This document shows, piece by piece, positions 11,733-60,904 of a stretch of 64,000 nt of DNA. Below the pieces are notes generated by a model that saw nothing but the letters and a program-made list of their open reading frames with translations, ran no database searches and had not been told where the DNA came from. The stretch is taken from assembly GCF_964213995.1 (NCBI RefSeq), contig NW_027590141.1:1302001-1366000 (forward strand), written 5' to 3'. A program made the translations under genes and the position numbers. Position 1 is the stretch's first letter, and every line of letters starts with the position of its first letter. The stretch is from Mustelus asterias. Its lineage: Eukaryota.

Positions 11733-12938
11733 ATGGAAGAAAAAAGCACCATTCACAGAGAGGAGACACTGTACAAGTGTTCTGTATGTGGACAAGGCTT
11801 CAATCGATCATCTGGCCTGTCGAGACACAAGCGCAGTCACACCAGGGAGAGACCGTATAAATGTGGAGACTGTGGGAAAGGATTCAATTATCCAGTTGAC
11901 CTGCAAAATCACCAACGCACTCACACTGGAGAGAGACCTTTTACCTGCTCTGTGTGTGGGAAGGGATTCACTCAGACAGCTGGCCTGTTGATTCACCAGC
12001 GCATTCACAGCAGGGAGAGGCAGTTCACCTGCTCCGAATGTGGAAAAGGATTTACTCAGTCATCGGCCCTGCTGATACATTGGCACATTCACACAGGGGA
12101 GAGGCCTTTCACCTGCTCTGAGTGCGGGAAGGGATTCACAGATTTCTCTGCCCTGCAGAGACACCAGCGGGTTCACACCGACAGGAGAGAGTTTAAATGC
12201 ACTGAGTGTGGAAAGAGTTTTAAAACTCCACGCACACTCCGGGAGCACCAGTACATTCACACCGGTTCCACACCGTTCAGCTGCTCCCACTGCCAGAAGG
12301 GGTTCAGGACATCATTCCACCTTGTGGCACATGAGCGCATTCACACTGGAGAGAGGCCATTCACCTGCTCTGAATGTGGGAAGGGATTTAACCGATCATC
12401 CAACCTGCAGAAACACCAACGAGTTCACAGTGAAGAGAGACCGTTTAAATGTCCAGACTGCGGGAAGGGCTATAAAAGTTCTGAGGAACTACGTCACCAT
12501 CAACGTGTTCACTCTGACGAGAGACCATTCACGTGTTCTCACTGCGGGACTGGCTTCAGGCGATCAGGCGACCTCTCTGTACACCAGCGAATTCACACTG
12601 GGGAGAGGCCGTTCACCTGCCCTGTGTGTGGGAAGGGATTCACTTGTTTATCCTCTCTCACTTCACACCAACTTGTTCACACAAATGAGAGACCGTTCAA
12701 ATGTTCTGACTGTGAGAAGAGCTTTAAAAGCAGAAAACTTCTGCTCGCACACCAGCGAAATCACTCTGAGGACAAACCGTTCACCTGCACTGAGTGTGGG
12801 AAAGGATTCACCCGGTCATCTATTCTGCTGAGACACCAACAAGTTCACAGTGAGGAGAAGCCGTTCCCTTGTTCAATGTGTGGAAAGAGATTCACCCAGT
12901 CATACAACCTGGTGAGACACCAGCGAGTTCACCAGTGA
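11733..12938 (+). CDS. C2H2 zinc-finger protein (ZNF-A), 14 intact tandem fingers, no effector domain
   Basis: 14 CxxC...HxxxH units with TGERP-type linkers. ATG at 11733, with a splice-acceptor cassette ~100 bp upstream. Confidence 0.92.
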
Positions 12939-15169
12939 TCACAGGGGTGTGATTCTGCTGTTATTGCTGCTGTTAATTACATCCCAACTAAATAATGTTT
13001 ATACTGATAGTTGGAGTTTATCTGATGTAAATCAGCCCTGTTGGACTTGTAGAATACCCCACAGCATCTCTCATTCATGTGTCAATAAATCTTCACGCCT
13101 GCAGACCTTGTTTTAAATTTAAATCACTCAGAAACTGTATTGAACTAAAGATGAATAATAAACAGATGACAGTCCAATCCACCCCTGTGTGAATGTGCCG
13201 ATGTATCAGCAGGCCGATGACTAAAGTCTGTTTTGTAACTTCAGGATAAGGATTTGAAAGCTCTGAATGTTGGCCCTCTCATATGTAGACTGGAGCTATT
13301 TGATAGGCAGGATGTTAATAGCTGTAAACTTGTCAGATGTCGAAAGAATTACTATTGGAGTAAACTCACCCATTTATAACCTCAGACTCTGGTCCCTATT
13401 GTAATGAATAAGTAACACAGTGGAATAGCGGGATAAATATGTGGGGCTACGGGGATAGGGCCTGGGTAAGATGCTCTGTTGGAGAGTCTGTGCAGACTCG
13501 ATGGGCCCTGTACCCTTGTGCATTTACCCTGCTAACCCCCCTAACCTACACATCTTTGGACGCAAACAGATAATTTAACATGGCCAATCCACCTAACCTG
13601 CACATCTTTGGACTGTAGGAGGAAACTGAAGTACCCAGAGGAAACTCAGACACAGGGAGAAGGTGCAAACTCCACACAGAAACCCAAGGCTGGATTCAAA
13701 CCCAGTGCTGTTAGGCAGCAGTGTTAACCACTGTTCCACCGTGCAGCCCTTCATCTGCTGCTGAAGCCCACATCCACACATTACCGTCAGACTTGACAAT
13801 TTCAACACATTTCTGACTGGTCTCCCATATTCTGTAATTTTGAGATAATCCAAAATGTCCCCATGTCTTGCAGACACTTCCTCCATCTTCACAACCCCCT
13901 CTTCTAATTCTGGGCCTCTGTGGAGCCCCTTTGCAATTCCTGCAGCATTGCTGGCCTGCGGACTAATGTCTGGTTCAATCCCCATTCCAGCTGAGGTCGG
14001 TGTCGGAGCTGTCTCCTCACCCTGCCCAAGAGTGGATGGTAACGGCAGCCTGCTACTGACACAAACTGCCAGGAAAACAGCTCTGGATGACACATCAGCA
14101 GACAATGAGCCAAGGAGCTGCCTATGGGATAAATTCTGCATTACTAGCTATGTGGTGGGTCATTGCTTATTTAGTCACTGCTATAAACAGCGGAATTTTC
14201 ACTTTGTAAACCTCAGCTTGAAGGAATAAAGTGAATAAATTGGGATATTCACTTTTACCATTATCCATCTGAAGCCAATGGACTCCTTTTTCCCCGTCCT
14301 GATGTGACACTGAATCTTCTTTGATTTGAAGAAGAAACTTAACCTTAGAGCACTGGGTGGTACAGTGGCCCAGTGGTTAGCACTGCTGCCTCACAGCACC
14401 AGGGGTTTGGATTCGATTCCCGGCTGGGTCACTGTGTGGAGTTTGCACATTTTCCACGTGTCTGTGTGGATTTGCTCCAGTTTCCTCCCACAGTTCAAAA
14501 GACAGGCTGGTTAGGTGCATTGGCCATGCTGAATTCTCCCTCAGTGTACCCGAACAGGTGCCGGAGTGTGGCAACAAAGTGATTTTCACAGTGACTTCAT
14601 TACAGTGTGAATGTAAACCTAGTTGTGACACATAAATAAACTTTACTATTGGCCTCAGTACCCGAGACCTGGCAGGATGGCAAGAATGGCCTGGGGCTCC
14701 AGTGAGGTGTACTGGAGGGGCTGGAGTGGGCAAGTGGTGACACTGGGAGGAGCAGCAGCTGGGAGGCATATAGCGACCCCTGGTGGACAGGAGGCGAAAC
14801 AGCAGCAGCACAGTCTGTGCAAAAGCTTCCCCAGTTCAGCTGGAGACTGGAGATCAGAGAGACTGGGAACCTCCTCAAATGTAAACTTCAGCTTTTCACA
14901 TTCTCCCCCATTCATCCCTCTCTCCCTCCATCCACCTCACACTCCCTCCCTTTCTCCATCCCTCCCTCTCACCATCCATCCCTCTCTCCCTCCTCCCATC
15001 CCTCCCTCCAATAAGAACCATTCACTGAGCACAGCAGTTTCAGCCTCATTCCCACAGTCTGTATTCCAGCCTTTATCACATCCACTCTGCTCCCAGATAC
15101 TTTACACCATTAGATATTACAATTCAAACTTTATAATCTCAACAATTTACTATTTGTTCTGGAAGATGA

Positions 15170-15497
15170 GGGCGGCATGGTGGCACAGTGGTTAGCACTA
15201 CTGCCTCACAGCGCCAGGGACCTGAGTTCAATTCCCGGCTTGGGTCACTGTCTGTGCAGAGTCTGCACATTCTCCCCGTGTCTGTGTGGGTTTCCTCCGG
15301 GTGCTCCGGTTTCCTTCCACAGTCCAAAGATGTGCTGCTTAGGTTGACTGGCCATGCAAAATTGACCTTAGTGTCAGGAGGATTAGCAGGTTAAATATGT
15401 GGAGTTACGGGGATAGGGCCTGGGTGGGATTGTGGTTGGTGCAGACTCGATGGGCTGAATGTCCTTCTTCTGCACTGTAAGATTCTACGTTTCTATG
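15170..15497 (+). mobile_element. HE1 SINE (V-SINE with CR1-derived tail)
   Basis: ggcggcatggtggcacagtggttagc...ttctgcactgtaagattctac. Further copies at 1-145(-), 13510-13745(-), 16045-16363(-), 42955-43277(-), 47885-48320(-), 51690-51993(+), 56805-57125(-), 61674-61997(+) and 63328-63637(-). Confidence 0.85.
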
Positions 15498-16535: not shown

Positions 16536-16536
16536 C

Positions 16537-19500
16537 TTAAAATCTGAAATAAAACAGTCAATGCCACAAATAGTCAACAGGCCCAGCAGCTTCTATGAAG
16601 GCAGAAACAGAGTGAAACATACAGCCAAACATCCATATGAATGAGGAGCAGCAGTGGACCATTGGGCCCCTCTGCTGCAGCATTTGACAAGATCCCAACT
16701 GATCTGATTGTGGCCAGAACTCAATTTTTCTGTCTCCGCCCCCCCCCCCCCCCCCCCGTCCCCTCTCCCCTCCCCCCACCCCCAAATCCTCTGACTCTCT
16801 TGTCAATCAGGAATCCATTTATTCAGTCTTAAAAATATTCAATGACTCTGTCTACACTGCTCTCTGGCGAAGAGAATTCCACAGACCAAAGACCCCCTGA
16901 GAGAGAGAGAAAAATCTCGTTCTCTCTGTCCCTAACGTCTCAAGCGCTCCCCAGAGCCACACAGGGAAAATCAGGATAAAAGCAAATTACAGTGAATGCT
17001 GGAATCTGAAACCAAAAGAGAAAATGCTGGAAAATCTCAGCAGGTCTGGCAGCATCTGTCAGGAGAGAAAAGTGCTGACGTTTCGAGTCCAGATGACCCT
17101 TTGTCAAAGACTGACCTCTGAAGAATTGAGAGAGGGAGGTGGAGAAGAACAAAATGTAAGATCCGCAAACTGACAAAATGATTCATGGCCCAAGACCAAA
17201 GCGAGTGGTAATGGGACAAGTAAAGACACAAAAGATGTTCTGGATGAGGTGTGAATAGCCGGTGAGCGATAGTCTGAATGTAAAGTAAACAAGAGGGAAA
17301 TGAGGTGAAAAAAGCAGCAACGAAACACAGAACACAATGGGGGCAGAGATTGTGGTGTAAAATTGTTGAGCTCAGTTTTGTTCTGAAGGCTGTAAAGTGT
17401 CTCTTTCAGTTGCGAGAAATAATATTATATTTCCCAGTTCCGATGACAGGTCACATTCAGTCTGTTTCTCGCTCCACAGAGGCTGCCTGACTTGTTGAGT
17501 ATTTCCAGCCAAAAGAGAAAACGCTGGAAAATCTCAGCAGGTCTGGCAGCATCTGTAAGGAGACAAAAAGATCTGAGGTTTCGAGTCCAGGTGACCCTTT
17601 TGACGAAAGCAACAACTTGCTTTCATTCATGAGTATTTCCAGCATTTTCCGTTTTATGTCAAGCAGAGAATGTGTAAGAATTGTCACATCTGGAACAGAT
17701 GTCTCTTACACAGGACACCCCAGCTCGGGTCTTGGGGGATTAACCGGAGAAGCTTTTTAAACTGAGGAAAGTAACTGCATTTGGGCGCTGACTTTAAACA
17801 ACATTAACAAGCCCGGGCTGCTGGAGAAACATTTTGGGATTTGTGAGCAGTCAGTTCCGGCTGGTTTGAAGTGAAATCCTGTCGGTGCTGCGGCAAATCT
17901 GAACTCAAACCAGACAAACTGGAACCGCTGGGTTAGAGATTCCGGGTGTTGGGATGTGGAGGCTGGGGGAGGGGGAGATGGCGGTAAAACTCTGAGCCTG
18001 AGTTTCGAGCGGGATGTGAGCGGGGTAAAGGGGAGGAATGACAGAGTTAATGTGGGAGTCAGGGACAATAGCAGAAGGTGGGAAGCTCTGGAAAGGAGCA
18101 TTGAGGATAAAGGCCACCAAAGAATGCTTGTTTAAATGAAGATAAAAGCAAAATACTGCAGATGCTGGAATCTGAAACAGAAACAGAAAATGCTGGAAAT
18201 CTCAGCGTCTGTGGAGAGAATAGAGTTAATGCTTCCAGTCTGGATGATCACAGATGCTGTCAGACCTGCTGAGGTTTTCCAGCACTTTCTGTTTTTGATT
18301 AACTGAAGGTTCAGCTCAGCAGGGAAAGAAGCACCGAACTGAACACACTGAACCCAGGGAGAGGGGGTGACCGAGGATAAGGGACAGGCGCAGCTCAGTG
18401 AGGCTCTGCAACGTCCATCAACACATCCACATTCAGACCTTAGAGCGCCAAGGGGGAGGGGAAGGAGAAACTATTTGGGACACAGCAGGAGGTCACCCCT
18501 CCCCCCACTCTGGGGTTCCACATCCCTCCCACACCTGGGCAAGGTTGGCTCAAGGTGCAGGAAGCTGCAAGCTGAGAGGCTGAGCTGTGAACTGGGCCGG
18601 GTTGGGGGTTTGAGTGACAGTCCTGGGGCTATTTCAGGACAGGAACTGCCACAGATTCCCTCTTTTTCCTGGGACGTTTCAGTGGAGCTGTGTTGGTGAG
18701 TGTTTGTAATCTCTGTCTCACTGTCTCGGTAATGGGGGTGGGTTGTAGATTGCTGTGAGTGTTAGACTAAATAACCTCTCCTCATGCTGCCAGTTCCAGT
18801 CTGCAGATTCCATTTCTCAGTCCAGTCTGCTGCTCTGTCTCTCTGTACTTTGCTGCAGTGCTCCACATTCTGAGCAACATCCAGCCCATTGTTATCACCC
18901 CAAATTTGCGGCAAACTCTCTTCACTGTGGCACAGTGGTTCACACTGCTGCCTCACTGAGTCAGGGTTCGACTCCAGCCGTGGGTGTGTGACTGTCTGTG
19001 TGGAGTTTGCACAGTAAGGGTACAGAATAAAATTTTTGCGGTTGCAGGCAGGATGAAGAAAAAGGTCAGGATGGGGATTAGCAGAGTAAGTGCGTGGGGT
19101 TACTGGGATAGGAGGTGAGCCTGGGAAAGATGCTCTCAGAGTCAGCAGAGACTCGATGGGTAAAATGGCCTCTTTCTGCACTGGAAGGATTCTGTGATTA
19201 GTGAATTACGGTGAACAACTTTTGAATGGAGGGATTTCTGAGGCGCAGAGCATTGTGGGAAATGTGACCGCCATTAGTCAATGCCTGACTCTAGATGTTT
19301 CATTATAGACTGAGGGCAAGTCAGCAAACTGAGCCCTCAATTCTGTTTGTGACTCTGACAGGTTGCCTGGCCTGTTGAATATCTCGAGGATTTGTTCTTT
19401 TTGTCCCAGATACAGTCTCTACAGAGTTTCCTGTGTTATTGTTTTATAGCTTCGAATTTGGAAACACAGTTAGGAGCCGGTTTGAATCAGGCTGCGTGTT

Positions 19501-20877
19501 GGATGCAGAACTCAGTTCCTGGCCTCCTGCGTGTTTTTTTTTACTGTTGCTTCGGTCTGGACTCTGTTCATCATCTGTCTCTATAGGTTCTCTCTCAATC
19601 CCCTTTTTTCTGTTTTAAATCAGTTTCACAGGGACTAGAAGGGGACGATTTGCAGTCAGGAAACTGAAAGTAAATATCATATCAGGAACTGCCATCATAA
19701 CTGAATATCAGTGGATTTTGAACATGGAAGGAAAAAGCACCGTTCACAGTGGAGAGAAACCGTACACGGGTTCTGTGTGTGGACGAGGCTTCAGCCGATC
19801 CTCTGGTCTGGCAAAACATAAGTGCAGCCACTCCATGGAAAAACTGTGGAAATGTGTGGACTGTGGGAAGGAATTTAATTACCCATCCCAGCTGGAAACT
19901 CATCGGCGCAGTCACACTGGGGAGAGACCGTTCACCTGCTCTGAGTGTGGGAAGAGATTCACTCAGTCATCCAACCTACTTACTCATCAGCGAGTTCACA
20001 CTGATGAGAGACCTTTTAAATGCTCAGACTGTGGGAAGTGCTTCAAAAGTTCTTGGGAACTGATGTCCCATCAACGTGTTCACACTGATGAGAGACCTTT
20101 TAAATGCTCAGACTGTGGGAAGTGCTTCAAAAGTTCTTGGGGACTGATGTCCCATCAACGTGTTCACACTGATGAGAGACCGTTCAGGTGCTCTCACTGT
20201 GGAATTGGGTTCCAGCATTCACATAACCTTACTGTACACCAGCGAATTCACACTGGGGAGAGGCCATTCACCTGCTCCGAGTGTGGAAAAGGATTCACTC
20301 GGTCATCCCAACTATTGATACACCAGCGTATTCACAATGGGGAGAGACCTTTTAAATGCTCTGACTGTGTGAAGTGCTATAAAAGTTCTGGTGAACTGAT
20401 GTCCCATCAACGTGTTCACACTGATGAGAGACCGTTCAGGTGCTCTCACTGTGGGACTGGGTTCAGGCGATCATATGATCTCATTCTACACCAGCGCACC
20501 CACACTGGGGAAAGGCCATTCACCTGCTCTGAATATGGGAAGGGATTCATTCAGTCCTCCAGTCTGCTGAGACACAAGCGAGCTCATGCTGGGGAGAGAC
20601 CATTCAGCTGCTCTGAGAGTGGGAAGAGATTCACTCAGTCATCCTACCTGCTTAGACACCAAAGAATTCACCAGTAACCACAGTGATTGGAATCTGCTGT
20701 TAATCCTATCCAGGACTGTAATATGTTCATTGCGTTTGTTTTTGTTGATGTTAATGAACTCCAGCCAGTTATACGGTTTAATATTCTGAATAAAAGTCAA
20801 ATCAATTATCTTTGTGTTCAGTACTGTGAATCTTTTTAATATCATCAGCACAACTGAATTCCTTCTGAGTTGCTCTC
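16537..20877 (+). repeat. Segmental duplication unit A (inverted partner at ~28058-36685)
   Basis: Collinear reverse-complement identity, e.g. 17757-18100 vs 34940-35260, 18300-18700 vs 32330-33260, and ZNF-B vs ZNF-D with their 3' flanks. Confidence 0.9.
19724..20677 (+). CDS. C2H2 zinc-finger protein (ZNF-B), 11 units (8 intact, 3 lacking a Cys)
   Basis: Open array. Finger 1 YTGSVC and the last two (CSEYG, CSESG) are degenerate. There is an 84-bp tandem finger duplication (KSSWEL/KSSWGL). Confidence 0.85.
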
Positions 20878-24780: not shown

Positions 24781-25482
24781 ATGGAAGAAAAAAGCACCGT
24801 TCACAGCGGAGAGAAACCCTACTCGTGTTCTGTGTGTGGTCAGGGATTCAATCGATCATCTGACCTGTCAAAACATAAATGCAGTTATGATGGGGACAAG
24901 CTGTGGAAATGTGAGGACTGTGGGAAGGGATTCAATTACCCATCCCAGCTGGAAACTCATCAGCGTGGTCACACCAGGGAGAGGCCGTTCACCTGCTCGG
25001 ACTGCGGGAAAGGATTCATTAAGTCATCCACCCTGCTGACACACCAGCGCACACACACTGGGCAGAGGCCATTCACCTGCTCTATGTGTGGGATGGGATT
25101 CACTCAGTCACCCACGCTGCTAACACACCAGCAAATTCACACTGGGGAGAGGCCATTCACCTGCTCTGACTGTGGGCAGGGATTCACTCACCAATCCACC
25201 CTGCTGACACACCAGCGAGTTCACACTGGACAGAGACCATTCACTTGCTCTAGGTGTGGGAAGAGATTCACTCAATCATCAGCACTGCTCAGACACCAGC
25301 GAGTTCACACTGGGGAGAGACTGTTCATCTGCAATGATTGTGGGAAGAGATTCACTCAGTCATCCAACCTGCTGACACACCAGCGAGTTCACACTGGGAA
25401 GAAACCATTCACGTGTTCTGAGTGTGGGATGGGATTTACTCAGACATCCAACCTGCTGAGACACCAGCAAATTCACAATTAA
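24781..25482 (+). CDS. C2H2 zinc-finger protein (ZNF-C), 8 units
   Basis: [14 protein letters not shown]... Finger 1 lacks its last His and seven fingers are intact. Acceptor ttcacag at ~24670. Confidence 0.88.
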
Positions 25483-26865: not shown

Positions 26866-27169
26866 GGATAAATGTTGAAGCTTCAGTGTTTCAAGATCGA
26901 TCTAAATGAAGCGTTCTGGAAGGACAGAGCATATTGTTGGACTGTAAATACTCGACAGCTGCTTTTCAAACTGTGTTCTGGTGCATCCACTATCCCGGGC
27001 AAGCTCTGAGATATTTGATGAAGATATATAGCTCGGGCAATACCGATACGTCTCCGGATTTGTCAGATAGGTTCTCGGCTGCTTTGCACAAAGGAAACAA
27101 CACTGTTCCTTTAAAAATCGCCAGGGCTCTTCTGCCTGACAGCGCCGTGTATTTCTGTGCCATGGAGTT
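26866..27169 (+). pseudogene. T-cell receptor alpha/delta-like V gene segment (V exon), pseudogene
   Basis: Acceptor ttacag|, then GINVEASVFQDRSK*SVLEGQSILLDCKYS...VFWCIHYPGQALRYLMK...DRFSAAL...VPLKIARALLPDSAVYFCAME. It has the Ig-V Cys/Trp/Cys and DSAVYFCA motifs, with an in-frame TGA at 26907. Confidence 0.88.
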
Positions 27170-27209
27170 CACACTGGTGCAGAAATACAGCGAACTCCGC
27201 CCAAAAACC
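27170..27209 (+). promoter_or_regulatory. V(D)J recombination signal sequence (23-type)
   Basis: Heptamer CACACTG at 27170-27176, 24-bp spacer, nonamer CCAAAAACC at 27201-27209 (8/9 match to ACAAAAACC), directly after the V exon. Confidence 0.8.
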
Positions 27210-28256
27210 CCAGACTGGGGGTTCCGGTTAGAGATCAGCAGAGGGCGCTCCCGCACCGATAAACAGAAACAATTATATCGTGTCCACAGAAAGAGTCACA
27301 AGATCATAAATGAAATATCAAATCAAAACAGAACACTCAACCTGAACAGCTGTGCCGCAGTTGGGTTTTTAACTTGCAACTATACTAAAAATACAGTTAT
27401 GCTTCGTTCACTCATGCTCAGTCCTTTGATGATATTTCCTTGCTCGTGTAATTACTGTGTAGCACTTTCCCCATCTTGACTGTCCGTTTCGAGGTCGCTT
27501 TGCTCAAAGGGTCTGTTTGGTCAGAGTATTTTGCTGCCTAACGGACAGTTTATAGAACATATGCATTTCGCAAGGTTGCCATTGTGCTATTTAAAACAAT
27601 CCCTGGGAACAAGTTACCATCAATGTTCATTCTCATTTTGTATATCTGTGAAATGTTTTCTGACACAATTCGTAAGCCAGGGCTTCCGCCTGACAATAAC
27701 AAGACCAGGGAATTCATTCCCACCCGTGCCCTTAACAATAAAGTGATTTTCCTAATGGGCACATTGATTAAATCCCAGATTGGGATATTTCTGCTCACTG
27801 AAAGGCAGGTCTCCAACATTGGCAAACATGTAAATGACGTGAGAGAATGCAATGACACTAGAACAGATTAATGAGAGTGCAGATTAGATTGAGACTCCTC
27901 TGTTTCATCTTCCCTTTTACAGAACGTACAGCAACAATGCGGGAAGGCAGAAGTTGGGTGTTCTGGGGAATTTCAGAGAAGCAATTGTGGAATAAACACA
28001 TTTAATCTAATTTCCCAATCGCAATTTCAACCTAAAGTTTAAAAGTATTCCGACATGAGAGAGCACTTCAAAAAGGAATTCAGATATGTTGATGATGTGA
28101 AAAAGATTCAACACAGTATTAAACACAAAGCTGGTTTATTTTGACTTCTATTCAGAATATTAAACCACACAACTGGCTGGAGTTCATTATCAGCAAAAAT
28201 CCAATTAACACATTACAGTCATGGATAGGATTAACAGCAGATTCCAATCACTGTGG

Positions 28257-28958
28257 TTACTTGTGAATTATTTGGTGTCTAAGCAGGTGGAATGCCTGAG
28301 TGAATCCCTTCCCACATTCAGAGCAGATGAATGGCCTCTCCCCAGTGTGAACTCGCTGGTGTGTCAGCAGATTGGAGGACTGACTGAATCCCTTCCCACA
28401 CTGAGAGCAGGTGAATGGCCTTTCCCCAGTGTGGGTGCGCTGGTGTACAATGAGGTTACATGAATGCCTGAACCTAGTCCCACAGTGAGAGCACCTGAAT
28501 GGTCTCTCGTCAGTGTGAATACGTTGATGGGACATGAGTGCATCAGAACTTTTGTAGCACTTCCCACAGTCTGAGCATTTAAAAGGCCTCTCATCAGTGT
28601 GAACCCGCTGATGTGTCAGCAGGTTGGATGACCGAGTGAAGCCCTTCCCACACTCTGAGCAGATGAATGGCCTTTCCCCAGTGTGAATGCGCTGGTGTGA
28701 CACCAGATTTCCTGACTCAGTAAATCCTTTGCCACACTCAGAGCAGGTGAATGGCCTCTCCCCAGTGTGAATGCGCCAATGAATTTTCAGCTGGAATGGG
28801 TAATTGAATTCCTTTCCACAGTCCACACATTTCCACAGTTTTTCCATGGAGTGACTGCACTTGTGTCTCGATAGGCCAGATGATCGGCTGAAGTCTCGTC
28901 CACACACAGAACACATGTATGGTTTCTCTCCACTGTGAACGGTGCGTTTTCCTTCCAT
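28257..28958 (-). CDS. C2H2 zinc-finger protein (ZNF-D), 8 fingers; inverted paralogue of ZNF-B
   Basis: [19 protein letters not shown]..., 8 intact units, with flanks homologous to those of ZNF-B. Confidence 0.9.
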
Positions 28959-30481: not shown

Positions 30482-31390
30482 TGATGTGGAGATGCTGGCA
30501 TTGGACTGGGGTAAACAGTGTAAGAAGTCTCACAACACCAGGTTAAAGTCCAACAGGTTTATTTGGTAAAAAAATCCATTAGCTTTCGGAGTGCTGCTCC
30601 TTCATCAGGTGAGTGGGAGTTTTTCACAAACAGGGCATATAAAGACACAAACTCAATTTACAAAATAATGATTGGAATGCGAGACTTTACAGGGGATCAA
30701 GTCTTAAAGGTACAGACAATGTGAGTGGAGAGAGGGTTAAGCACAGGTTAAAGAGATGTGTATTGTCTCCAGACAGGACAGTTCATGAGATTTTGCAAGT
30801 CCAGGCAAGTCGTGGGGATTACAGATAGTGTGACATGACCCCAAGATCCCGGTTGGGGCCGTCCTCATGTGTGCGGAACTTGGCTATCAGTCTCTTCTCA
30901 GTGACTCTGCGCTGTCGTGTGTCGTGAAGGCCGCCTTGGAGAATGCTTACCTGAAGATCATCGGCCTCTGATCTTCGGGTAAGCGTTCTCCAAGGTGGCC
31001 TTCATGACACATGACAGCGCAGAGTCACTGAGCAGAGACTGATAGCCAAGTTCCGCACACATGAGGACGGCCTCACCCAGGATCTTGGGGTCATGTCACA
31101 CTATCTGTAATCCCCACGACTTGCCTGGACTTACAAAATCTCATGAACTGTCCTGTCTGGAGACAATACACACCTCTTTAACCTGTGCTTAACCCTCTCT
31201 CCACTCACATTGTCTGTACCTTTAAGACTTGATTACCTGTAAAGACTCGCATTCCAATAATTATTTTGTAAATTGAGTTTATGAAAAGAACTCCCACTCA
31301 CCTGACGAAGGAGCAGCGCTCCGAAAGCTAGTGGATTTTGCTACCAAATAAATCTGTTGGACTTTAATCTGGTGTTGTGAGACTTCTTAT
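30482..31390. mobile_element. Penelope-like insertion made of two inverted 3' ends (~430-bp arms), 12-bp TSD
   Basis: Arms 30530-30960(-) and 30970-31390(+). TSD gatattcagcag at 30470-30481 and 31391-31402. The empty paralogous site is at ~19365-19390. Confidence 0.9.
31299..31333 (+). ncRNA. Minimal type I hammerhead ribozyme in a Penelope pLTR
   Basis: CAC-CUGACGA-A-GGAGC-agc-GCUCC-GAAA-GCUA|GUG. Related copies at 22141-22175(-), 30577-30611(-), 32842-32878(+) and 52856-52890(+). Confidence 0.8.
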
Positions 31391-32940: not shown

Positions 32941-33504
32941 TATAGCCCCAGGGCTGTCACTCAAAGCCCCAACCCCGTCCAGTTCACAGCTCAGCCTCTC
33001 AGCTTGCAGCTTCCTGCACCTTGAGCCAACCCTGTCCAGGTGTGGGAGGGATGTGGAACCACAGAGTGGGGGGAGGGGTGACCTCCTGCTGTGTCCCAAA
33101 TAGTCTCTCCTTCCCCTCCCCCTTGGCGCTCTAAGCTCTCAATGTGGATGTGTTGATGGACATTGCAGAGCCTCACTGAGCTGCGCCTGTCCCTTATCCT
33201 GGGTCACCCCCTCCCCCTGGGTTCAGTGTGTGAACTCGCTGCTTGTTTACCTGCTGAACCTTCAGTTAATCAAAAACAGAAAGTGCTGGAAAACCTCAGC
33301 AGGTCTGATCACATCTGTGATCATCCAGACTGGAAGCATTAACTCTATTCTCTCTCCACAGATGCTGTCAAACCTGCTGAGATTTTCCAGCATTTTCTGT
33401 TTATGTTTCAGATTCCAGCATCCGCAGTGTTTTGCTTTTATCTTCATTTAAACAAACATTCTGTGAAGGCCTTTACCCCCATTGCTCCTTTCCAGAGATT
33501 CCCA

Positions 33505-34938
33505 CATAGAACATAGAACATAGAACATTACAGCGCAGAACAGGCCCTTCGGCCCACGATGTTGCACCGACCAGTTAAAAAAAAAAACTGTGACCCTCCA
33601 ACCTAAACCAATTTCTTTTCGTCCATGAACCTATCTACGGATCTCTTAAACGCCCCCAAACTAGGCGCATTTACTACTGATGCTGGCAGGGCATTCCAAT
33701 CCCTCACCACCCTCTGGGTAAAGAACCTACCCCTGACATCGGTTCTATAACTACCCCCCCTCAATTTAAAGCCATGCCCCCTCGTGCTGGATTTCTCCAT
33801 CAGAGGAAAAAGGCTATCACTATCCACCCTATCTAAACCTCTAATCATCTTATATGTTTCAATAAGATCCCCTCTTAGCCGCCGCCTTTCCAGCGAAAAC
33901 AATCCCAAATCCCTCAGCCTCTCCTCATAGGATCTCCCCTCCATACCAGGCAACATCCTGGTAAACCTCCTCTGCACCCTCTCCAAAGCCTCCACATCCT
34001 TCCTGTAATGTGGGGACCAGAACTGCACACAGTACTCCAAGTGCGGCCGCACCAGAGTTGTGTACAGTTGCAACATAACGCTACGACTCCTAAATTCAAT
34101 CCCCCTACCAATAAACGCCAAGACACCATATGCCTTCTTAACAACCTTATCTACTTGATTCCCAACTTTCAGGGATCTATGCACACATACACCTAGATCC
34201 CTCTGCTCCTCCACACTATTCAAAGTCCTCCCGTTAGCCCTATACTCAACACATCTGTTATTCCTACCAAAGTGAATTACCTCACACTTCTCCGCATTAA
34301 ACTCCATCCGCCACCTCTCGGCCCAACTTTGCAACCTGTCTAAGTCTTCCTGCAAACTACGACACCCTTCCTCACTGTCTACCACACCACCGACTTTGGT
34401 GTCATCAGCAAATTTGCTAATCCACCCAACTATACCCTCATCCAGATCATTAATAAATATTACAAACAGCAGTGGCCCCAAAACAGATCCCTGAGGTACA
34501 CCACTTGTAACCGCACTCCATGATGAATATTTACTATCAACCACCACCCTCTGTTTCCTATCCGCTAGCCAATTCCTGATCCAATTTCCTAGATCACCCC
34601 CAATCCCATACATCTGCATTTTCTGCAGAAGCCTACCATGGTGAACCTTATCAAACGCCTTACTAAAATCCATATATACCACGTCCACTGCCTTGCCCCC
34701 ATCCACCTCCTTGGTCACTTTCTCAAAAAACTCAATAAGGTTAGTAAGGCACGACCTACCTGCCACAAAACCATGCTGACTATCACCTATCAATTCATTA
34801 CTCTCCAAATAACTATAAATCCTATCCCTTATAATTTTTTCCAACATCTTGCCGACAACAGAAGTGAGACTCACCGGTCTATAATTCCCGGGGAAGTCTC
34901 TGTTCCCCTTCTTAAACAATGGGACAACATTCGCTAAC
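33505..34938 (-). mobile_element. 5'-truncated copy of the intact CR1 at 2448-6440
   Basis: Its translation from LANVVPLFKKG to DEKKLV is the same as the 3513-6332 ORF2, and it has the same 3' tail. It sits at a site that is empty in the paralogue (~18078). Confidence 0.95.
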
Positions 34939-37050
34939 CACCTTCTGCTATTGCCCCTGAATCCCACATTAACCCTGTCATTCCTCCCCTTTACCCCGCT
35001 CACCCTGTCTAAACTCAGGCTCAGAGTTTTCCCGCCATCTCCCCCTCCCCCAGCCTCCACATCCCAACACCCGGAATCTCTAACCCAGCGGTTCCAGTTT
35101 ATCTGGTTTGAGTTCAGATTTGCCGCAGCACCGACAGGATTTCACTTCAAACCAGCCGGAACTGACTGCTCACAAATCCCTAAATGTTTCTCCAGCAGCC
35201 CGGGCTGGTTAACGTTGTTTAAAGTCAGCGCCCAAATGCAGTTACTCTCCTCAGTTTAAAAAACTTCTCCATTTAATCTAAGGTATTATTCGCGCCAGAC
35301 ACAAATATAAAACAGTGAACTTTATCCCCCCACCCTGACCCGAGCTGGAGTGTCCCGAGGAAGCGACATCTGTTCCGGGTGTGACAATTCTTACACATTC
35401 TCTGTGACATAAAGCAGAAAACGCTGGAAATACTCATGAATGAAAGCAAATTGTTGCTTTTGTCAAGAGAGTCATCTGGACTCGAAACGGCAGCTCTTTT
35501 CTCTATTTACAGATGCTGCCAGACCTGCTGAGATTTTCCAGCATTTTCTGTTTTGGCTGGAAACACTCAACAAGTCAGGCAGCCTCTGTGGAGAGAGAAA
35601 CAGACTGACTGTGACCTGTCATCGAACTGGGAAATATATTTCCCGCAACTGAAAGAGGTATCTTACAACCTTCGGAACAAAACTGAGTTCAACAATTTTA
35701 CACCACATTCTCTGCCCCCTTTGCGTTCTGTGTTTCGTTGTTGCTTTTTTCACCTCTTGTTTTCTTTACTTCGTATTCAGACTGCTGCTATTCACACCTC
35801 ATCCAGAACATCTTTTGTGACTTTACTTGTCCCATTACCACTCGCTTTGGTATTGAGCCGTGAATCATTTTGTCAGTTTGCAGACCTTTCATTTTGTTCT
35901 TCTCCATCTCCCTCTCTCCCTCCTTCACAGGCCTGGCTTTCTCTGGGTGGCACTGGAGAGCGAACTAGACTTGAGATGTTTGAGACAGAGAGATTGAAAT
36001 GTTTTTTTCTCTCAGAGGGTCTTTGGTTTCTCTTCCCCAGAGAGCAGTGAAGACAGAGTCATTGAATGTTTTTAAGACTGAGTAAATGGATAAAAGCAAA
36101 TTACTGCGGATGCTGGAATCTGAAACCAAAAGAGAAAATGCTGGAAAATCTCAGCAGATCTGGCAGCATCTATAAAGTGAGAAAAGAGTGGACGTTTCGA
36201 CTCCAGATGACCCTTTGTCAAAGCTAAAAGGCATAGAAAGTGGGAGATATTTATACTGCAGGGTGAGGGAATGAAAAATGAGTCACAGCCACAGAAACTC
36301 GGGTAAAGAGCTGCTAATGGCAGTCCATCGAGAGAATAAAGGGTGTGAATGGCCAACGGCAGAGAAGCTGAAATCAGCTGTGACAGATGAAGATGTGGGG
36401 GGAGGGGGAGAGGGAATGGGAAGAAGAGAGGTAAAATGGGAAAAGGGGGGAAGGGAAATAAAAGGGGGAGAAAAGGTAAGGAAAGGATGGAGGTAGACAG
36501 GAAAGTGGAGTTGTGGTCGCAATCAGATCAGCCAGGATCTTATCAAATGCTGGAGCAGAGGGGCCACTGCTGCTCCGGATTCATGTGGGTGTTTGACTGT
36601 ATGTTTCACTCTGTTTCTGTCTCCACAGAAGCTGCCGGGTCTGTTCACTATTTGGGGCTTTGACTATTTTTATTTCAGATTTGAAGCATCTGCAGGATAT
36701 TCTGTCCATGCAAACCCAACACACCTTTCATTGTTTAATGCAGAGCAGTGCATGTGCACGGTGCTCCCTGTCAACAGGAGAGAATGTTGTGAATTCCTAT
36801 CCTGGATTGACTGGGATGGATTTTGTAAATTAATTTTATCTGGGTTAGAAGGGAAGGATTTACACACACAAAATTCAAAACCCTGTTTCTTATTTCAATA
36901 TTGGATATATGAGTCGCTGGTAAGGTCGCTGCATTTCAAACAGAGCTTGCGAGTGTTTTGAAGTGTTTTCTTTAAAAGTCCCCTTCACTCCTGTGCTACT
37001 CAGGAGAAGATTTCACATTCACATTCTCCAGGATAGAGGGGCAAGAGAAC

Positions 37051-39800: not shown

Positions 39801-39802
39801 TG

Positions 39803-43329: not shown

Positions 43330-43810
43330 TCCAAATCCTCCCAGCCACCGCCGAACGCTGACTCCGCTTCTCCGGGACAAACAAGCGCCAAGGACAGCAA
43401 TGACACTGCGCATGCTCCACATCACATTGCCCGGGGACTGATTGACGGCAGCTCCGGACCAATAGGAAGAGTTCCCTATCCACTGCAGGGAGGAGGTGCG
43501 CATGGGCAGTAAGCAACGACGTTCGCCGTGTGGGTGACAGCAACTGGAGAGAAGTTCCTGTGTCTCATCAGCAGCCGGTAAGGATGCAGAAACATAGAGG
43601 GGGCAATGGAACCGGCGGATGGACGTAGAAGGTTTCTAAATATCTTTTGAAGGCCTCAAATATCGAATATGAGCCCGTAGGTCCCGGATTTGCAGCTTCA
43701 GGTCTTTTTCCCGAGACAAAGCTCAGGTTAGCGGCCGCCATCTTGATTCAGCGGGGAGCAGAGCGCATGCCCTGGTGTCTTGGTGACGCAACCGTGAGTG
43801 GGCGGGTCTT
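43330..43810. promoter_or_regulatory. CpG-rich ZNF promoter and first exon (likely bidirectional)
   Basis: TGCGCATG twice, CCAAT/ATTGA pair, donor ccg|gtaagg at ~43578, and downstream gcggccgccatcttg...gcgcatgc. Confidence 0.6.
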
Positions 43811-43984
43811 TGTGTTTCTGCTCCCACCGGGTCCTAATGCACCCATCGTGGCCTTTTGCATACCAACAATGAGCAATAGATTTTCAAACAGCTTCACCCA
43901 CTCCCAGGCTGCACCTCACGTTTGCAGCTGAGAGAAGTTTATGGGTCATGTACATATTCAGTATGAGAGGTTGAATCCCTGTGT

Positions 43985-46945: not shown

Positions 46946-48531
46946 TCTCCACATCCAAGACCTTTCAGGATCTGAAAGGTTTAAATTAAGTTGCCTCTTA
47001 CTCTTTTAAACTCGAGCAGAGACTGTCTCACTGCTCCTCATCAGACTATCCACCTATTCCAGGTGTTAGTCGACTAAACCTTCTATGAACTTCTCATGCA
47101 TTTATATTTTTCCTTAAATAAGGAAATCGATAATGTAGACATTGCTCCAGATACAGACTCACTGTGTGCAACTGAAACATAACTTCCCTGCTTTTACTCC
47201 ATTCCCCTCATAACAAACAATAGCTTTCTGAATTACTTGTACCTGGATTTTCTATCGTGATGGATTTTGGATATTTTTTGTTACAGGGGGTTAGAAATTG
47301 AGGATTTACACACAAGCTCAAACCAAGAGAAAAATGTTGTCTCTTCTGATACGGACTTTCTGAATGGGATAAGTAGGGGGATGTGAATGGAATGTTTCCA
47401 CTTGTTGGTTCTTCCATTACTGGGAACCATGAACAGACAACAAATAAATCAAACAGGAAAATAGGAGATGTTTCTTTCTTCAGACGTTGTTAGAATATGG
47501 AACTCACTGCGACTGGAAGTGGTTGACTCAAATACTTTAGATGCTTTCAAAAGGAAAATATATGAGCCTATGAGAGAAAAGGGATTGGAAAAATCAACTG
47601 AAAAGCTGAGATGTGGTGATCAGAATGAGAGGAGACTCATGTGGAGGATAAACTCCAGTACAGACTCGATAAACCGAATGGCCTGTTTGTGTATTGTCAC
47701 AGACAGAACAAACAATTCTCCTTCCCTGTTCAAAGACAATAACAATCAGCTCCTAATGATCCGAGTGACTGTCAGATCTCAACGTGATGTTTGGTTTGTG
47801 TTTTCTTGCTGTAAATCCTCCTTTCCAATATCCTGCAAAGGGAATTTACAAAAGTCATCACTGTCAGTCCAGGATAGATATATTCATAGAATTCCACAGT
47901 TCAGAAGGAGGCTATTTGGCCCATCAAGTCAACTCTCCGACAGAGCATCCCACCAAGGCCCCAACAACATAACCCAACTTATTTACCCCACTAATCTCCC
48001 TAACCTACACACCATGGGGGGAAAATGGATAATTTAGCATGGCCAGTCCACCTAACCTGAATATCTTTGGACTGTGGGAGAAAACCGGAGCACCTGGAGG
48101 AAACCCACGCAAACAAGTGGAGAATATGCAAACTCCACACAGCAGCGCTCCGAAAGCAAGTGGCGTTTGCTACCAAATAAACCTGTTGGACTTTAACCTG
48201 GTGTTGTTAAACTCCTTACTGTGTAAACTCTACACAGACAGGTAACCACGGCCGGAATCGAACCCAGGTCCCTGGTGCTGTGAGGCAGGAGGACTAACCA
48301 CTGTGCCACCGTGCCAGCCACGTAATTCTTTGTAAACTTATTTTACAGGAAATAGAAGAGGAGGATTTGCAGTCTGGACAATCAAATCTCACGTCAGACA
48401 GAGTCAATCGGTTCATTGGGATTTGAAGATTTGTGCATCTGAAGGGATTTAATTGACCATCTCAGTTGGAAACTGGTGAGAATCTGTTTCCTTGCTCCTC
48501 CTGTGGGGAGGGATTGATACAGCTGGAAAAC

Positions 48532-49737
48532 ATGCTGACACGACAGCGAGCTCGCAATAGTGAGAGTTCATTCACCTGCTCCGTGTGTGGGAAGAAATTC
48601 ATGTGTTCGTCCAACCTGCTGGCTCACCAACTCGATCACATTATTCAGAAGCCTCTTCAAAGCTCTGACTCTGGGCAAAGCATTGAAACCTCTGAGGAAC
48701 AGGCCCAACACCAGCTCCTTCACACTGACGAGAGACCGTTCAGCTGCTCCCACTGCGGGAAGAGGTTCAGCCAGTCCTCCCGCCTTGCAGAGCACCAGCT
48801 CCTTCACACACACGAGAGACCGTTCAGCTGCTCTCACTGTGGAGAGTCATTCAGCGACTCAGTGCATCTCACTGAGCACCAACAAGTTCACACCAAGGAC
48901 AGGCCATTCAGCTGCTCCCAGTGTGGGAAGAGATTCACTCAGTCCTCCCACTGCACCGTTCACCAACAGATTCATTTTCAGAAGAGACATTTTAAATGCT
49001 TTAAATGTGAGAAGACCTTCAAAAGAAGGATTAGTCTGCTGAGACACCAGGGCACTCACACTGGGGAGAGGCCATACGTTTGCCCTGTGTGTGGGAAAAC
49101 ATTTACTTGTTTGCAGCATCTGCTGAGTCACCGGCCTATTCACACCGGGGAGAAGGCATTCATCTGCTCCGTGTGTGGGAAGGCTTTCACGGAGTCATCC
49201 AGCCTCCGGAGACACCGCCGCATTCACACAGGGGAGAAGCCGTTCTCCTGCTCCATTTGCGGCAAAAGATTTGCTCAGTTTTCCTACTGCAATCAACACC
49301 AACACATTCACTCTGACAAGAGACCTTTTCAATGCTCAGAATGCAATAAGACCTTTAAAAGAAGTGATGATCTGCTGAAACACAATCGCATTCACACCGG
49401 GGAGAGGCCGTTCCTGTGCTCTGTGTGTGGAAAGGGATTCGCTCAGTCGTCTGGCCTGCTGAGACACCAACGCATTCACACTGGGGAGAAGCCGTTCACC
49501 TGCTCTGTGTGTGGGAAGGGATTCACTGATTCATCCTTTATGCTGAAACACCAGCGAGCTCACACTGGGACAGAACCGTTCACCTGCTCCCTGTGTGGGA
49601 AGGGATTCACTGATCCATCCCGCCTGCAGAGGCACCAGCGAGTTCACACTGGGGCAAAACCTTTCAACTGCTCCATGTGTGGGAAGGGATTTAATCAGTA
49701 TTACAGCCTGCTGAAACATAGACGACTTCATGTGTGA
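48532..49737 (+). CDS. C2H2 zinc-finger protein (ZNF-E), 13 intact fingers plus degenerate N-terminal units
   Basis: Open frame 48457-49737, first ATG at 48532, acceptor ttttacag at ~48348. Start codon is uncertain. Confidence 0.85.
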   Translation: MLTRQRARNSESSFTCSVCGKKFMCSSNLLAHQLDHIIQKPLQSSDSGQSIETSEEQAQHQLLHTDERPFSCSHCGKRFSQSSRLAEHQLLHTHERPFSCSHCGESFSDSVHLTEHQQVHTKDRPFSCSQCGKRFTQSSHCTVHQQIHFQKRHFKCFKCEKTFKRRISLLRHQGTHTGERPYVCPVCGKTFTCLQHLLSHRPIHTGEKAFICSVCGKAFTESSSLRRHRRIHTGEKPFSCSICGKRFAQFSYCNQHQHIHSDKRPFQCSECNKTFKRSDDLLKHNRIHTGERPFLCSVCGKGFAQSSGLLRHQRIHTGEKPFTCSVCGKGFTDSSFMLKHQRAHTGTEPFTCSLCGKGFTDPSRLQRHQRVHTGAKPFNCSMCGKGFNQYYSLLKHRRLHV

Positions 49738-55070: not shown

Positions 55071-55351
55071 GGATACTAGAAGGTGAGGATTTACAGACAG
55101 AAATCTCAAACCAAACGTCACATCAATATCTGACAGAGTCCTCAATTCGTCGGGACCTGAATATTATCGACCTTTGAATCCAGATTGGAAATGTTTCTCT
55201 GTTCAGTCTGCTTCAGGAGATTTTAAATTTCAGTGTGACTGGAAAAGCACCGAGACACACACCCGAGTGAGAGTGTTCCAGTGCACTGAGTGTGGAAAGA
55301 GCTTTAACCAGTTACACAGCCTGAAAATACATCGCAGCATTCACAGCGGGG
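55071..55351 (+). pseudogene. ZNF last-exon fragment (one finger) fused to a CR1 3' end (55352-55561)
   Basis: Acceptor ttttacag|gatactagaagg, [28 protein letters not shown], then CR1 3' sequence. Confidence 0.75.
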
Positions 55352-56099: not shown

Positions 56100-56500
56100 A
56101 CAGGAGCCTATTGCGCAGGCGCAGTGCTATATCTGGAGCGTGCGCAATGTCACTTTGCTCGGAGTCTTGCGAGTGCGGGAGTTGGCACATTTTTCTGCGG
56201 GTGAGTCGGTTGGGCTGTGGGAGAAATGGAGCCGGGAGTCGGGATAGGGAGGGAGGTATGGCTTCGAAACACCCGCTGTAGGCCGCACGGCCCGAATAGA
56301 CCCTGCAGGTCCCGAGTTTACAGCTCCCAGGCTTTTATCCCTGGAACAGGCCCCGGTTATCGGCCGCCATCTTGTTTCAGCGGAGACGGAGGGCGCATGC
56401 GCTGCTGTCTGTGACGGGTCATAATGGGCGTGGTTTCAGGGGTTTGTTCAGAACCTCGATCTTCAGAGGGACAATAGGTAGCAGGGCGCATGCGCAGCTA
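56100..56500 (+). promoter_or_regulatory. CpG-rich ZNF promoter and first exon
   Basis: TGCGCAGGCGCA, donor gcgg|gtgagt at 56201, then cggccgccatcttg...gcgcatgcgc and a further GCGCATGCGCA. Confidence 0.62.
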
Positions 56501-57949: not shown

Positions 57950-59190
57950 CACATAGAGTCATAGAGCAATATAGCACGGAAACTGGCCCTTGGGCCCAAC
58001 TGATCCATGCCAACCATGGTGCCCTCCCAGCTAGTCCCAGTTGTCCATGTTTGGCTCATATCCCTCTAATCCTTTCCAATTCATGTAATTATCCAAATGC
58101 TTTTAAAAATGTTTAAACCTGCTGTTTGAACCTGCCTCAACCACTTTCTCTGGCAGCTCATTCCATGTACACACCACCCTTTGCATGAAGAAGTTGCCCC
58201 TCAGGTCCCTTTTAATCTTTCCCCTCTCATCTTAAACCCATTCCCTCTAATTTTCAATTCTCTTACCCTGGCAAAAAGACAATGTGGGTTCATCCTATCT
58301 ATGCCCCTCATGATTTAATACACCTCAATATAGTCACCCCACATTCTCCTACATTCAAAGGAATAAAGCCCTAGCCTATCCAACCTCACACGATCATTCA
58401 GGCCCATTAGTCCCGGCAACATCCTCATAAATCTTCTTTGCACTCTTTCCAGTTTATCAATGTCTTTCCTGTAACAGGGTTACAAAAACTGTACACAGTA
58501 CTCCAAGTGCAGCCTCACCAATGACTTATACAACTATAACATAATGTCCCAACTCCTATACTCAGTGCCCTGACTGATGAAGGCCAGTGTGCTAAATGCC
58601 TTCTTCACCACTCTGTTTACCTGTGCCGCCACTTTCAATGAACTATGTACTTGTATTCCTGTGTTCCTCTGTTCCTCAACACTCCCCAGTGCCTTACCAT
58701 TCACTGTACAAGTCCTACCCTGGTTTGACTTTCCAAAATGCAACACTCACACTTAAGACCATAAGAGATAGGAGCAGAAATAGGCCACTCGGCCCATCGA
58801 GTTTGCTCCGCCCTTCAAACATGGCTGATATTTTTCTCATCCCCATTTCCTGCCTTTTTCCCATAACCCCAGATCTCCTTATTAATCAAGAACCTATATA
58901 TCTCTGTCTTAAAGACAGTCAATGACCTGGCCTCCACAGCCTTCTGCGGCAAAGAGTTCCACAAATTCACCACTCTCTGGCTGAAGAAATTCCTCCTTAT
59001 CTCTGTTTTAAAGGATCGTCCCTTTAGCCTGAGGTTGTGCCTCTGTACTCTGTATTATCTGTACTGAAATCCATTTGCCAATCATTGGCCCACTTTCCTA
59101 ACCGAACAACTGATCAAGATCCCCCTGTAATTTTTGATAACCTTCTTCACTATCAGCGATTCCTCCTAATTTAGTATCGTCTGCAAACTT
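57950..59190 (-). mobile_element. Decayed CR1 fragments (nested)
   Basis: LHFGKSNQGRTCTVNGKALGSVEEQR..., with a second CR1 3' end inserted at ~58755-59045. Confidence 0.75.
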
Positions 59191-60313
59191 GCTAACCATG
59201 CTTTTTATGAATTTTTAAACGACCATCCATTTCTCTGTTTCACCTCTGCCCTCCCTGATCAGCTCTCTGCCATTGTCTACCTTCCTCTGCCTCTAATAAT
59301 GGGTGTATTTTAACTATTATTTCCACAAGCTATGTCTTGATGAGGTTTTTACCACTTCACAACTCTATTCACTGCTGAGTGACCAGCTTAGTCTTACAAT
59401 GTTCAGGAACAGTTTCTCTTCCACTGGAGATCATTTCCCTTCCACTTCTGAGCTTATATTGACCAACAAAATCTGATACATTTTTATTCCCTGTAATTCA
59501 TTCTGCCCACCCTGAAACGTTAATCTTCTTTCTGTCTAAAAGGATGGTCTCTTTCCAAATGTTCACAATTAAAGAGCAGGAGATGGCTGATATTTAAGGG
59601 GACAGTAAATTAATATAGGACAGAGATATGTCTAGTGTTATTATATGGTACCCAGATTAGATAAATTATTTATGTTTCTGTAATAAAATACATTTATTAT
59701 TATTTCTTGCATTGTAATATAATGCTGTAGCGATGTTATACATTTCCAGTCATAAAGTCATTACAGCACAGAAGGAATCCATTTGGTAACTCGAGTCCAT
59801 GCTGACTCTCTGTATAACATTCCAGTCCCATTCCCACTCTACATCCCCATTCTCCTGAAAGTTTATTTCCTTCAAGTGCCCATCCACTTTCATTTTTAAA
59901 TAGAATCCTGTTCTGACTTTCTATCCTGTACTGACACTGATGACTTTTGTAAACTAATTTCACAGGACATTGAAAGAGGAATCACAGCCCGAAATCTCAA
60001 ACGTCGTGTCAGATCTGACAGAGTCATATTCCTTGGGAACTCAATATCATCGGCCTTTGAATCTAGAAGGAGAAATGATTGTCCGGTCTGTTGATTTGAA
60101 AAGATTTCAAACATCAGTGTGACTGGAAAAGCAGCAACACACTGCCACACTCGAGTGAGAGTGTTCCAGTGCACTGACTAAAGAGCTTTAACCAGTTACA
60201 CAGCCTGAATAAATATCACACCATTCACAGCGGGGAGAGACTACCCGTGTTGTGTGTGTGGACGAGGCTTCAACGGATTGTCCACACAAGAGAGAGGCAA
60301 GGACACCTGCACC

Positions 60314-60904
60314 ATGGAGAAACCATGGAAATGTGCAGACTGTGGGAAGAGATACAGATACCCAAATGAGCTGGAAGCTCATCGGCGCAACCACACTGGG
60401 GAGAGACCATTCATGTGCTCTCAGTGTGGGGAGGGATTCACTCAGTCATTCAACCTGCAGAGACACCAGTGAGTTCACACTGGGGAGAGACCGTTCATGT
60501 GTTCTCAGTGTGGGAAGGGATTCATTCAGTCATTCAACCTGCTGACACACCAGCGAGTTCACACTGGGGAGAGGCTGTTCACGTGTTTTCAGTGTGGGGA
60601 GGGATTCAGTCATTTATCCAGCCTGCGGAGGCACCAGCGAGTTCACACTGGGGAGAAGCCATTCACCTGCTCTCAGTGTGGGAAGGGATTCACTCGGTCA
60701 TCTGACCTGCGGATACACCAGCGAGTTCACACTGGGGAGAGGCCATTCATCTGCTCTCAGTGTGGGAAGGGATTCGCTTGTTCATCCAACCTGCGGGCAC
60801 ATGAGCACATTCATACTGGGGAGAGGCCATTCACCTGCCCTCAGTGTGGGAAGGGATTCGCTCAGTCATCCCACCTGTTGAGACACCAGCGAGTTCACGA
60901 GTGA
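60314..60904 (+). pseudogene. C2H2 zinc-finger gene (ZNF-F), 7 units, one premature stop
   Basis: accATGG at 60314 starts MEKPWKCADCGKRYRYPNELEAH. TGA at 60470-60472 in HQ*VH, where the other fingers have CGA. Confidence 0.85.

Follow-up and report, generated by a model that had tools for sequence, protein, structure and literature searches.

A head finger with two differently selected faces in a zinc-finger gene family of the shark Mustelus asterias

A 64,000-base stretch of the Mustelus asterias genome (assembly GCF_964213995.1, contig NW_027590141.1, positions 1,302,001 to 1,366,000; hereafter the window, with positions counted from its first base) carries a cluster of C2H2 zinc-finger (ZNF) genes, several of which have an atypical finger with a Tyr-Pro (YP) pair at the start of its helix. 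Here we report that the YP finger falls within a broader type, the head finger, which stands at the front of the array in nearly all sampled members of a family with several thousand copies, has a signature of its own, lies behind a leader that is closed to translation in most genes tested, occurs in both sharks and rays, and is under split selection (that is, its base-contact positions diversify with the rest of the array and positions on the opposite side of the helix are held).

Zinc-finger genes in the window

A six-frame scan of the window recovered all six YP fingers of the initial annotation, whose coordinates are those of upstream ATG codons rather than of the fingers. Their first cysteines lie at 11862 (NYPVDL), 19853 (NYPSQL), 24910 (NYPSQL) and 60332 (RYPNEL) on the forward strand and at 28829 (NYPFQL) and 7746 (SYPSLL) on the reverse strand, with Tyr at helix position -1 and Pro at +1, as had been described. 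The genes follow two layouts: class A has a short leader, an ATG within LNME(G/E)KS and one finger (finger 0) before the head finger, and class B has a leader of approximately 350-380 bases composed of decayed fingers with stops and frameshifts, followed by a start at MEKPWK. The ZNF features of the window are as follows.

11733-12938, forward: intact class A ZNF gene with 14 fingers (an intact finger 0, then the head finger)
11856-11924, forward: divergent head finger of the 11733 gene, YPVDLQN, with Gln at +5
11627-11732, forward: family-wide acceptor and leader of the array exon, open in the 11733 gene and closed in most genes
9120-9509, forward: predicted bidirectional promoter and non-coding first exon of the 11733 gene, with a donor-like site at 9510 and homology to elements of paralogues
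19724-20677, forward: intact class A ZNF gene; first Cys missing from finger 0; second ATG (MEKLWK) at 19835
19847-19915, forward: typical head finger of the 19724 gene
24781-25482, forward: intact class A ZNF gene; last His missing from finger 0
24904-24972, forward: head finger of the 24781 gene
28257-28958, reverse: intact class A ZNF gene (the 28958 gene), a paralogue of the 19724 gene
28767-28835, reverse: divergent head finger of the 28958 gene, with Lys at +5
59990-60904, forward: class B pseudogene with fossil fingers in its leader, an ATG at 60314, a head finger at 60326-60394 and a stop in finger 2
7600-8100, reverse: class B pseudogene with a head finger at 7684-7752, passing into LINE-like (long interspersed element-like) sequence after finger 2
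48445-49737, forward: head-less member with a broken head relic near 48445 and an intact array open reading frame (ORF) at 48532-49737
55072-55350, forward: class B leader relic (acceptor and fossil fingers) with no array behind it
1100-1520, forward: broken 3' fragment of another ZNF array

Of the six listed loci, four are intact genes (11733, 19724, 24781 and 28958); the 60314 gene has a stop in its second finger and the 7746 locus, already listed as a pseudogene, is interrupted. Missing from that list was the 48532-49737 gene, which is intact with its head finger destroyed. A Met in the context MEK(L/P)WKC does directly precede the YP finger in three loci (at 19835, in the 28958 gene and at 60314). 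The preceding finger, which was said often to lose a zinc ligand, has done so in two of the four intact window genes and in 4 of 16 sampled class A genes (about a quarter); ahead of the heads at 60314 and 7746, all that is left of it is non-coding.

Signature and position of the head finger

Across the 3.68-gigabase genome, a tight YP pattern had 581 exact matches (0 for a reversed control), many more than chance would give, finger starts of the WKC type 4,250 and the helix pattern CGKx(F/Y)xxPSxLE 3,223, and internal fingers of the TC type with YP numbered 3, compared with 18,458 internal FTC-type fingers; all of these are matches rather than genes and include pseudogenes and possibly duplicated contigs. 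For closer analysis, 120 ten-kilobase stretches were sampled (60 via YP, 20 via the acceptor and 40 via WKC) and 30 shorter WKC loci were added, taking first-listed matches only, so that few contigs dominate. In 86 ORFs from the first 60 stretches and the window, 64 of 66 YP fingers lay within the first three fingers and 63 within the first two, which upholds the suggested restriction to the array front. As a side observation, three loci (L013, L005 and L006) contain tandem or internal repeats of the head finger, with four consecutive YP fingers in L013.

The consensus of the head finger is W-K-C-x-D-C-G-K-x-F-x-x-P-S-x-L-E-x-H-R-R-x-H. In a set of 60 intact genes that left out those selected by YP and took position as the sole criterion for the head, Pro+1 was present in 57 heads and Glu+5 in 55, and the two occurred together in 52/60 heads versus 0/510 downstream fingers (Pro+1 in 10 and Glu+5 in 1 of the latter). 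Tyr-1 was found in only 13/60, the position being occupied by Tyr, Ser, Ala, Phe, Val and others, which does not support the Tyr-Pro pair as the constant part. YP is present in 14 of 15 class A genes, a set that was itself partly YP-selected, and class A dominates the window. Choosing loci by WKC guarantees Trp and Lys before the first Cys; in 33 loci chosen by other means (score-defined heads) they occur in 88% and 94%, respectively.

Gene anatomy and the closed leader

Array exons begin at a common acceptor, for which a tight pattern gave 92 exact matches in the genome. In the genes in which the acceptor was located, the array frame was closed between it and the head in 55/58 (45/45 class B and 10/13 class A), so that in these 55 an upstream coding exon, the finding that was to have overturned the earlier proposal, cannot be joined to the array through this acceptor. 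An ATG lies six codons before the first Cys in 73 of 97 intact genes; of these 73 ATGs, 65 have a strong context (purine at -3, G at +4). Of the same 73, 47 are preceded by a stop in frame 13 codons upstream and 9 by another ATG in frame; no acceptor with a pyrimidine tract lies near any of them. Given the closed leader in most genes together with the start context and upstream stops, most family proteins are predicted to consist of fingers only, without a separate effector domain.

Class B leaders (59990-60313, 7760-8100, 55072-55350 and other loci) are the remains of coding sequence for an acidic spacer and as many as three now defunct fingers, and a new start codon lies at the linker that leads into the head. 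The family appears to have lost its N-terminal part as far as the head finger, and translation of class B genes probably starts at MEKPWK.

The leader of the 11733 gene is open, and its predicted first exon (approximately 9200-9509) contains, beyond its final stop, no ATG in frame with the array. In contigs from four runs on 8500-15200, which cover this exon at low depth and of which three runs are guessed to be RNA of other organisms, no joint between exon 1 and the array was among the matches listed, which is evidence for neither side. The promoter/first-exon element at 9120-9509, in which we take certain motifs to be a GC box, NRF1 and YY1 sites, is homologous to elements upstream of paralogues L047, L029, L034, L044 and L050. 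This common element (9120-9600, 43690-43830 and others; 20 copies aligned) is apparently bidirectional, with head-to-head ZNF pairs.

Split selection on the head finger

The main test of omega (the ratio of amino-acid-changing to synonymous change) used 63 intact genes with position-defined heads and a tree from leader DNA only; the signature set of 60 is this set minus three mis-assigned rows, which the tree analysis kept. At the base-contact positions -1/+3/+6, omega was 2.05 in the head versus 1.79 and 1.86 in the next two fingers (Fisher p = 0.43, head versus next finger), and at +1/+5/+8/+9 it was 0.44 versus 1.12 and 0.93 (Fisher p = 3.6e-5). For the Lys before the first Cys and the Asp between the cysteines, it was 0.39 in the head versus 1.19 and 1.32. 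Giving transitions less weight changed the head values to 1.76 (-1/+3/+6) and 0.38 (+1/+5/+8/+9) and those of the next finger to 1.50 and 0.95. Twenty independent close pairs (score-defined heads, YP-selected genes included) gave 2.02 (p = 1e-3) and 0.31 (p = 1.5e-4) in the head and 1.69 and 1.28 in the next finger. Base-contact positions in the array exon diversify (omega 1.5-2.0), zinc-ligand and core positions have omega 0.04-0.07, and synonymous change per site over the tree was 9.6 in the head and 11.8 and 13.7 in the next fingers.

In other respects, the head is a classical C2H2 finger (C-x2-C-x12-H-x3-H, an aromatic/Leu core and a canonical linker), and an AlphaFold2 model of three fingers has the normal fold (predicted local distance difference test score, pLDDT, 88). 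On a helical wheel, +1/+5/+8/+9 fall at 40-140 degrees and -1/+3/+6 at 200-320 degrees, on opposite sides; in C2H2 fingers the helix sits in the major groove with -1/+3/+6 on the bases, as described in the accessible part of PMC12264921. The initial annotation had suggested that the finger may be a constant cofactor-recruiting or dimerisation module, set apart from DNA binding, that evolves differently from the fingers behind it. The difference in selection exists and the outer-face positions are constrained, but -1/+3/+6 diversify as they do downstream, so that constancy applies to one face only.

Occurrence in cartilaginous fishes

All 19 named elasmobranch proteins among the hits of protein searches (12 genera of sharks, rays and skate) carry exactly one head finger, first or second in the array, with Glu+5 in 19/19, Pro+1 in 17/19 and Tyr-1 in 11/19. 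Because they were retrieved by the head finger, their possession of it is circular, but its position is not. The same hits contained 14 non-chondrichthyan proteins, none with a head finger (0/14), one further protein that has it and no chimaera protein; the range covered is thus that of sharks, rays and skate, in agreement with the expectation that the finger is common to sharks and rays. Carcharodon is a thirteenth genus with the head finger.

In a representative protein search that ranked long arrays first, 21 of 3,508 fingers, in 11 of 150 proteins, were head-like: eight of the proteins come from Carcharodon or Heterodontus, two are weak matches without PSxLE (Latimeria and Athene) and one was not looked up. 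The internal heads of long arrays are preceded by class B leader sequence, and these arrays are probably fused gene models. Public Carcharodon and Heterodontus models (P0035, P0040, P0079 and others) appear to fuse neighbouring members into long proteins. Searches of the ESM Atlas yielded only generic C2H2 clusters, and a profile search of the PDB yielded generic ZNF arrays.

Gene models from rays (P0032, P0033 and P0034; Hypanus, Pristis and Mobula) represent a member with only the head and one more finger, and P0033 and P0034 begin with a PxVxL-like peptide. This lead towards an HP1 box was rejected: a protein search of the M. asterias genome gave 0 candidates, the pattern had 3 genome matches versus 3 for a control with none near an array, and an orthologue pattern had 0. 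The peptide has no longer homologues and aligns to a shark first-exon element lacking the motif; on this basis, it is probably a translated untranslated region (UTR).

Neighbouring sequences

The ZNF cluster also encloses an immunoglobulin V-set segment (26867-27210, forward; Pfam E 3.7e-13) with an in-frame stop near its start and, behind it, a recombination-signal-like heptamer, 23-base spacer and nonamer. It is an orphan V pseudogene, presumably of the T-cell receptor alpha/delta type. A LINE-like element at 2476-6435 with two long ORFs has an inverted partial copy at 33504-34942, and the 99.65% identity of the two over 1,443 bases indicates very recent retrotransposition or duplication within the cluster. 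Inverted paralogous segments (17106-18081 and 34938-35940, 85%) lie upstream of the 19724 and 28958 genes, and 30521-31389 is an 869-base self-inverted stretch (89%).

Relation to known systems

Large shark ZNF counts and the absence of KRAB are already in print. As far as the accessible parts of the sources go, cartilaginous fishes are without KRAB gene families (PMC8455134) and have ZNF repertoires among the larger ones (PMC10547256 supplement), the latter study tabulating 3,586 ZNF ORFs for Scyliorhinus canicula, 1,851 for Carcharodon, 1,223 for Amblyraja and 475 for Callorhinchus; the main text of that study contains none of the strings 'shark', 'chondrichth' and 'cartilaginous'. We found no description of the head finger in the literature on shark ZNFs or first fingers, which for the most part meant publications outside subscription journals.

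The family resembles the KRAB-ZNF genes of sarcopterygians in its clustered and fast-duplicating genes, its one-exon array behind a shared acceptor, its fast-evolving -1/+3/+6 positions and its many pseudogenes. It differs in that no KRAB-A domain was found before the array, the upstream exon is non-coding in the genes tested and the constant part is a finger surface within the array exon. The earlier statement that KRAB, SCAN and BTB domains are absent agrees with the Pfam families listed for five window ZNF ORFs (the best 25 for two of them), which include none of the three; a genome search with the KRAB profile PF01352 scored 76 candidates with 0 matches, a weak negative given that its positive control was also unmatched. 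The FiNZ-ZNF genes of cyprinids, as described in the accessible part of PMC10547256, are likewise a KRAB-less expansion in fishes with a lineage-specific conserved N-terminal feature, but in them this feature is FiNZ, an acidic domain of 28 residues that is not a finger and has an exon to itself. By inspection, the 20 promoter/first-exon elements share no ORF that could be a FiNZ-like coding exon, although no FiNZ profile was run.

The CGx(Phi)-type C2H2 proteins of Diptera also carry a distinct N-terminal finger family-wide, ahead of the DNA-binding cluster; according to the part of PMC12774644 that we could access, that finger has an extra strand with CGx(Phi) and lies at least 100 residues from the cluster. 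Shark class B proteins start MEKPWKC, with no strand at residues 1-4 in the model, and the head is joined by a TGERP linker to a finger that follows 84 bases on. The family thus shows the defining domain or motif of none of KRAB-ZNF, FiNZ-ZNF and CGx(Phi), and shares the array logic of the first two (including diversifying base contacts in an array exon). Single fingers of HIC2 (ZF2) and ZFP568 (ZF1/ZF2) have a Pro at the helix start and atypical base-contact residues (PMC12264921, in part), but are gene-specific rather than a family-wide fixed head. The best functional model is Kipferl of Drosophila, in which one finger of a DNA-binding array, ZnF4, recruits a heterochromatin protein by binding the Rhino chromodomain (PMC11245307, in part); the comparison is one of proposed role. 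Kipferl is a single ZAD protein, the finger is its fourth and the partner has been demonstrated.

A proposed DNA-reading first finger with a fixed cofactor face

We tentatively favour, at a little short of an even chance, the explanation that the head finger reads DNA and docks one shared cofactor through a fixed outer surface. The -1/+3/+6 positions, diversifying with the rest of the array, would read the end of the target site, and the surface formed by Trp and Lys before the first Cys, Asp between the cysteines, Pro+1, Glu+5 and Arg+9 may dock a single shared and probably repressive cofactor, in the manner of Kipferl ZnF4 with Rhino. We infer both that the head touches DNA and that it has a protein partner; repression, and transposons as the targets, are suggested by analogy with the KRAB and FiNZ families (PMC10547256 and PMC11603059, in part).

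Several observations weigh against this explanation. Pro+1 and Glu-Arg pairs at i/i+3 and i/i+4 would also stabilise a helix, and +8 taken by itself is close to neutral (omega 0.87). All omega values come from parsimony or pairwise counting between paralogues rather than from fitted codon models, and gene conversion and CpG effects may have influenced them; an acceptor could be placed in no more than 58 of the 131 genes that remained after removal of duplicates. Glu+5 is absent from two of the four intact window genes (Gln in 11733, Lys in 28958), a class A subfamily (L094 and L104) has an ordinary helix at the head position, and the 48532 gene and its paralogue L038 keep an intact array with the head destroyed (in L033 the head is destroyed too, but there is a stop); the comparison of head-less genes is confounded by internal duplications and carries no weight on selection. 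Furthermore, the -1/+3/+6 residues of the head are mostly small or hydrophobic, and since such residues give loose contacts (PMC12264921, in part), contacts by the head may be loose rather than base-specific. That these positions diversify speaks against a head ill-suited to gripping DNA, an argument that their hydrophobic make-up tempers.

The strongest alternative, which we consider possible but rather unlikely, is a structural end cap, in which the fixed residues stabilise or orient a first finger that has no preceding linker, or inter-finger or backbone contacts set the register of the array, without any cofactor. In its favour, a helix seldom opens with Pro but does so in the spacer finger HIC2 ZF2, and ZFP568 ZF1 makes inter-finger contacts (PMC12264921, in part); ZFP568 ZF1 also has an xPSQL helix, the net charge of the head (+2.3) is close to that of downstream fingers (+2.2), and the residue before Lys-Cys is a core aromatic position. 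However, class A heads are second fingers and yet keep Pro+1 in 15/15, Arg+9 in 15/15 and Glu+5 in 12/15 (YP-selected genes included), indicating that being first is not what fixes the head, and no such finger was found in any of the 14 non-chondrichthyan proteins.

It is improbable that the head is mainly a handle on protein fate, with a fixed N-terminus and surface governing nuclear import, turnover or a shared modification: the class B N-terminus is near-invariant (MEKPWK) and large ZNF families would presumably need shared control, but class A and ray N-termini differ where the finger surface is kept. Slightly less probable again is a homo- or heterodimerisation module resembling the CGx(Phi)-type fingers. 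Single N-terminal C2H2 fingers can dimerise without -1/2/3/6 (PMC12774644, in part), which would be compatible with a free DNA-reading face; the head, however, lacks the CGx(Phi) motif and, in the model, the extra strand, has only four residues before it in class B, and is followed by a canonical TGERP linker rather than a 100-residue spacer. A homodimer prediction for the head and finger 2, run without an alignment, scored 0.00, which we count neither for nor against a dimer. Finally, the idea that heads have no special function and are alike by recent common descent, edge fingers escaping array shuffling, fits their lower synonymous change (later fingers being shuffled more) but is very unlikely and largely refuted, as after scaling by synonymous change the outer face stands at 0.3-0.4 and -1/+3/+6 at about 2 within the same finger, and Glu+5 is present in 19/19 shark and ray proteins.

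The split selection singles out a handful of residues (Trp, Lys, Asp, Pro+1, Glu+5 and Arg+9) within a module of some 30 residues, which it predicts to remain in contact with DNA. By analogy with the known families, we further raise the speculative and, in our estimate, unlikely scenario that surveillance in sharks and rays is carried out, in a manner equivalent to that of KRAB, by thousands of proteins made of fingers only, with the effector built into the first DNA-reading finger, one face of which would co-evolve with the targets and the other recruit a single corepressor. Such a system, if true, would add to KRAB and FiNZ a third solution, reached independently and with no need of a separate domain.

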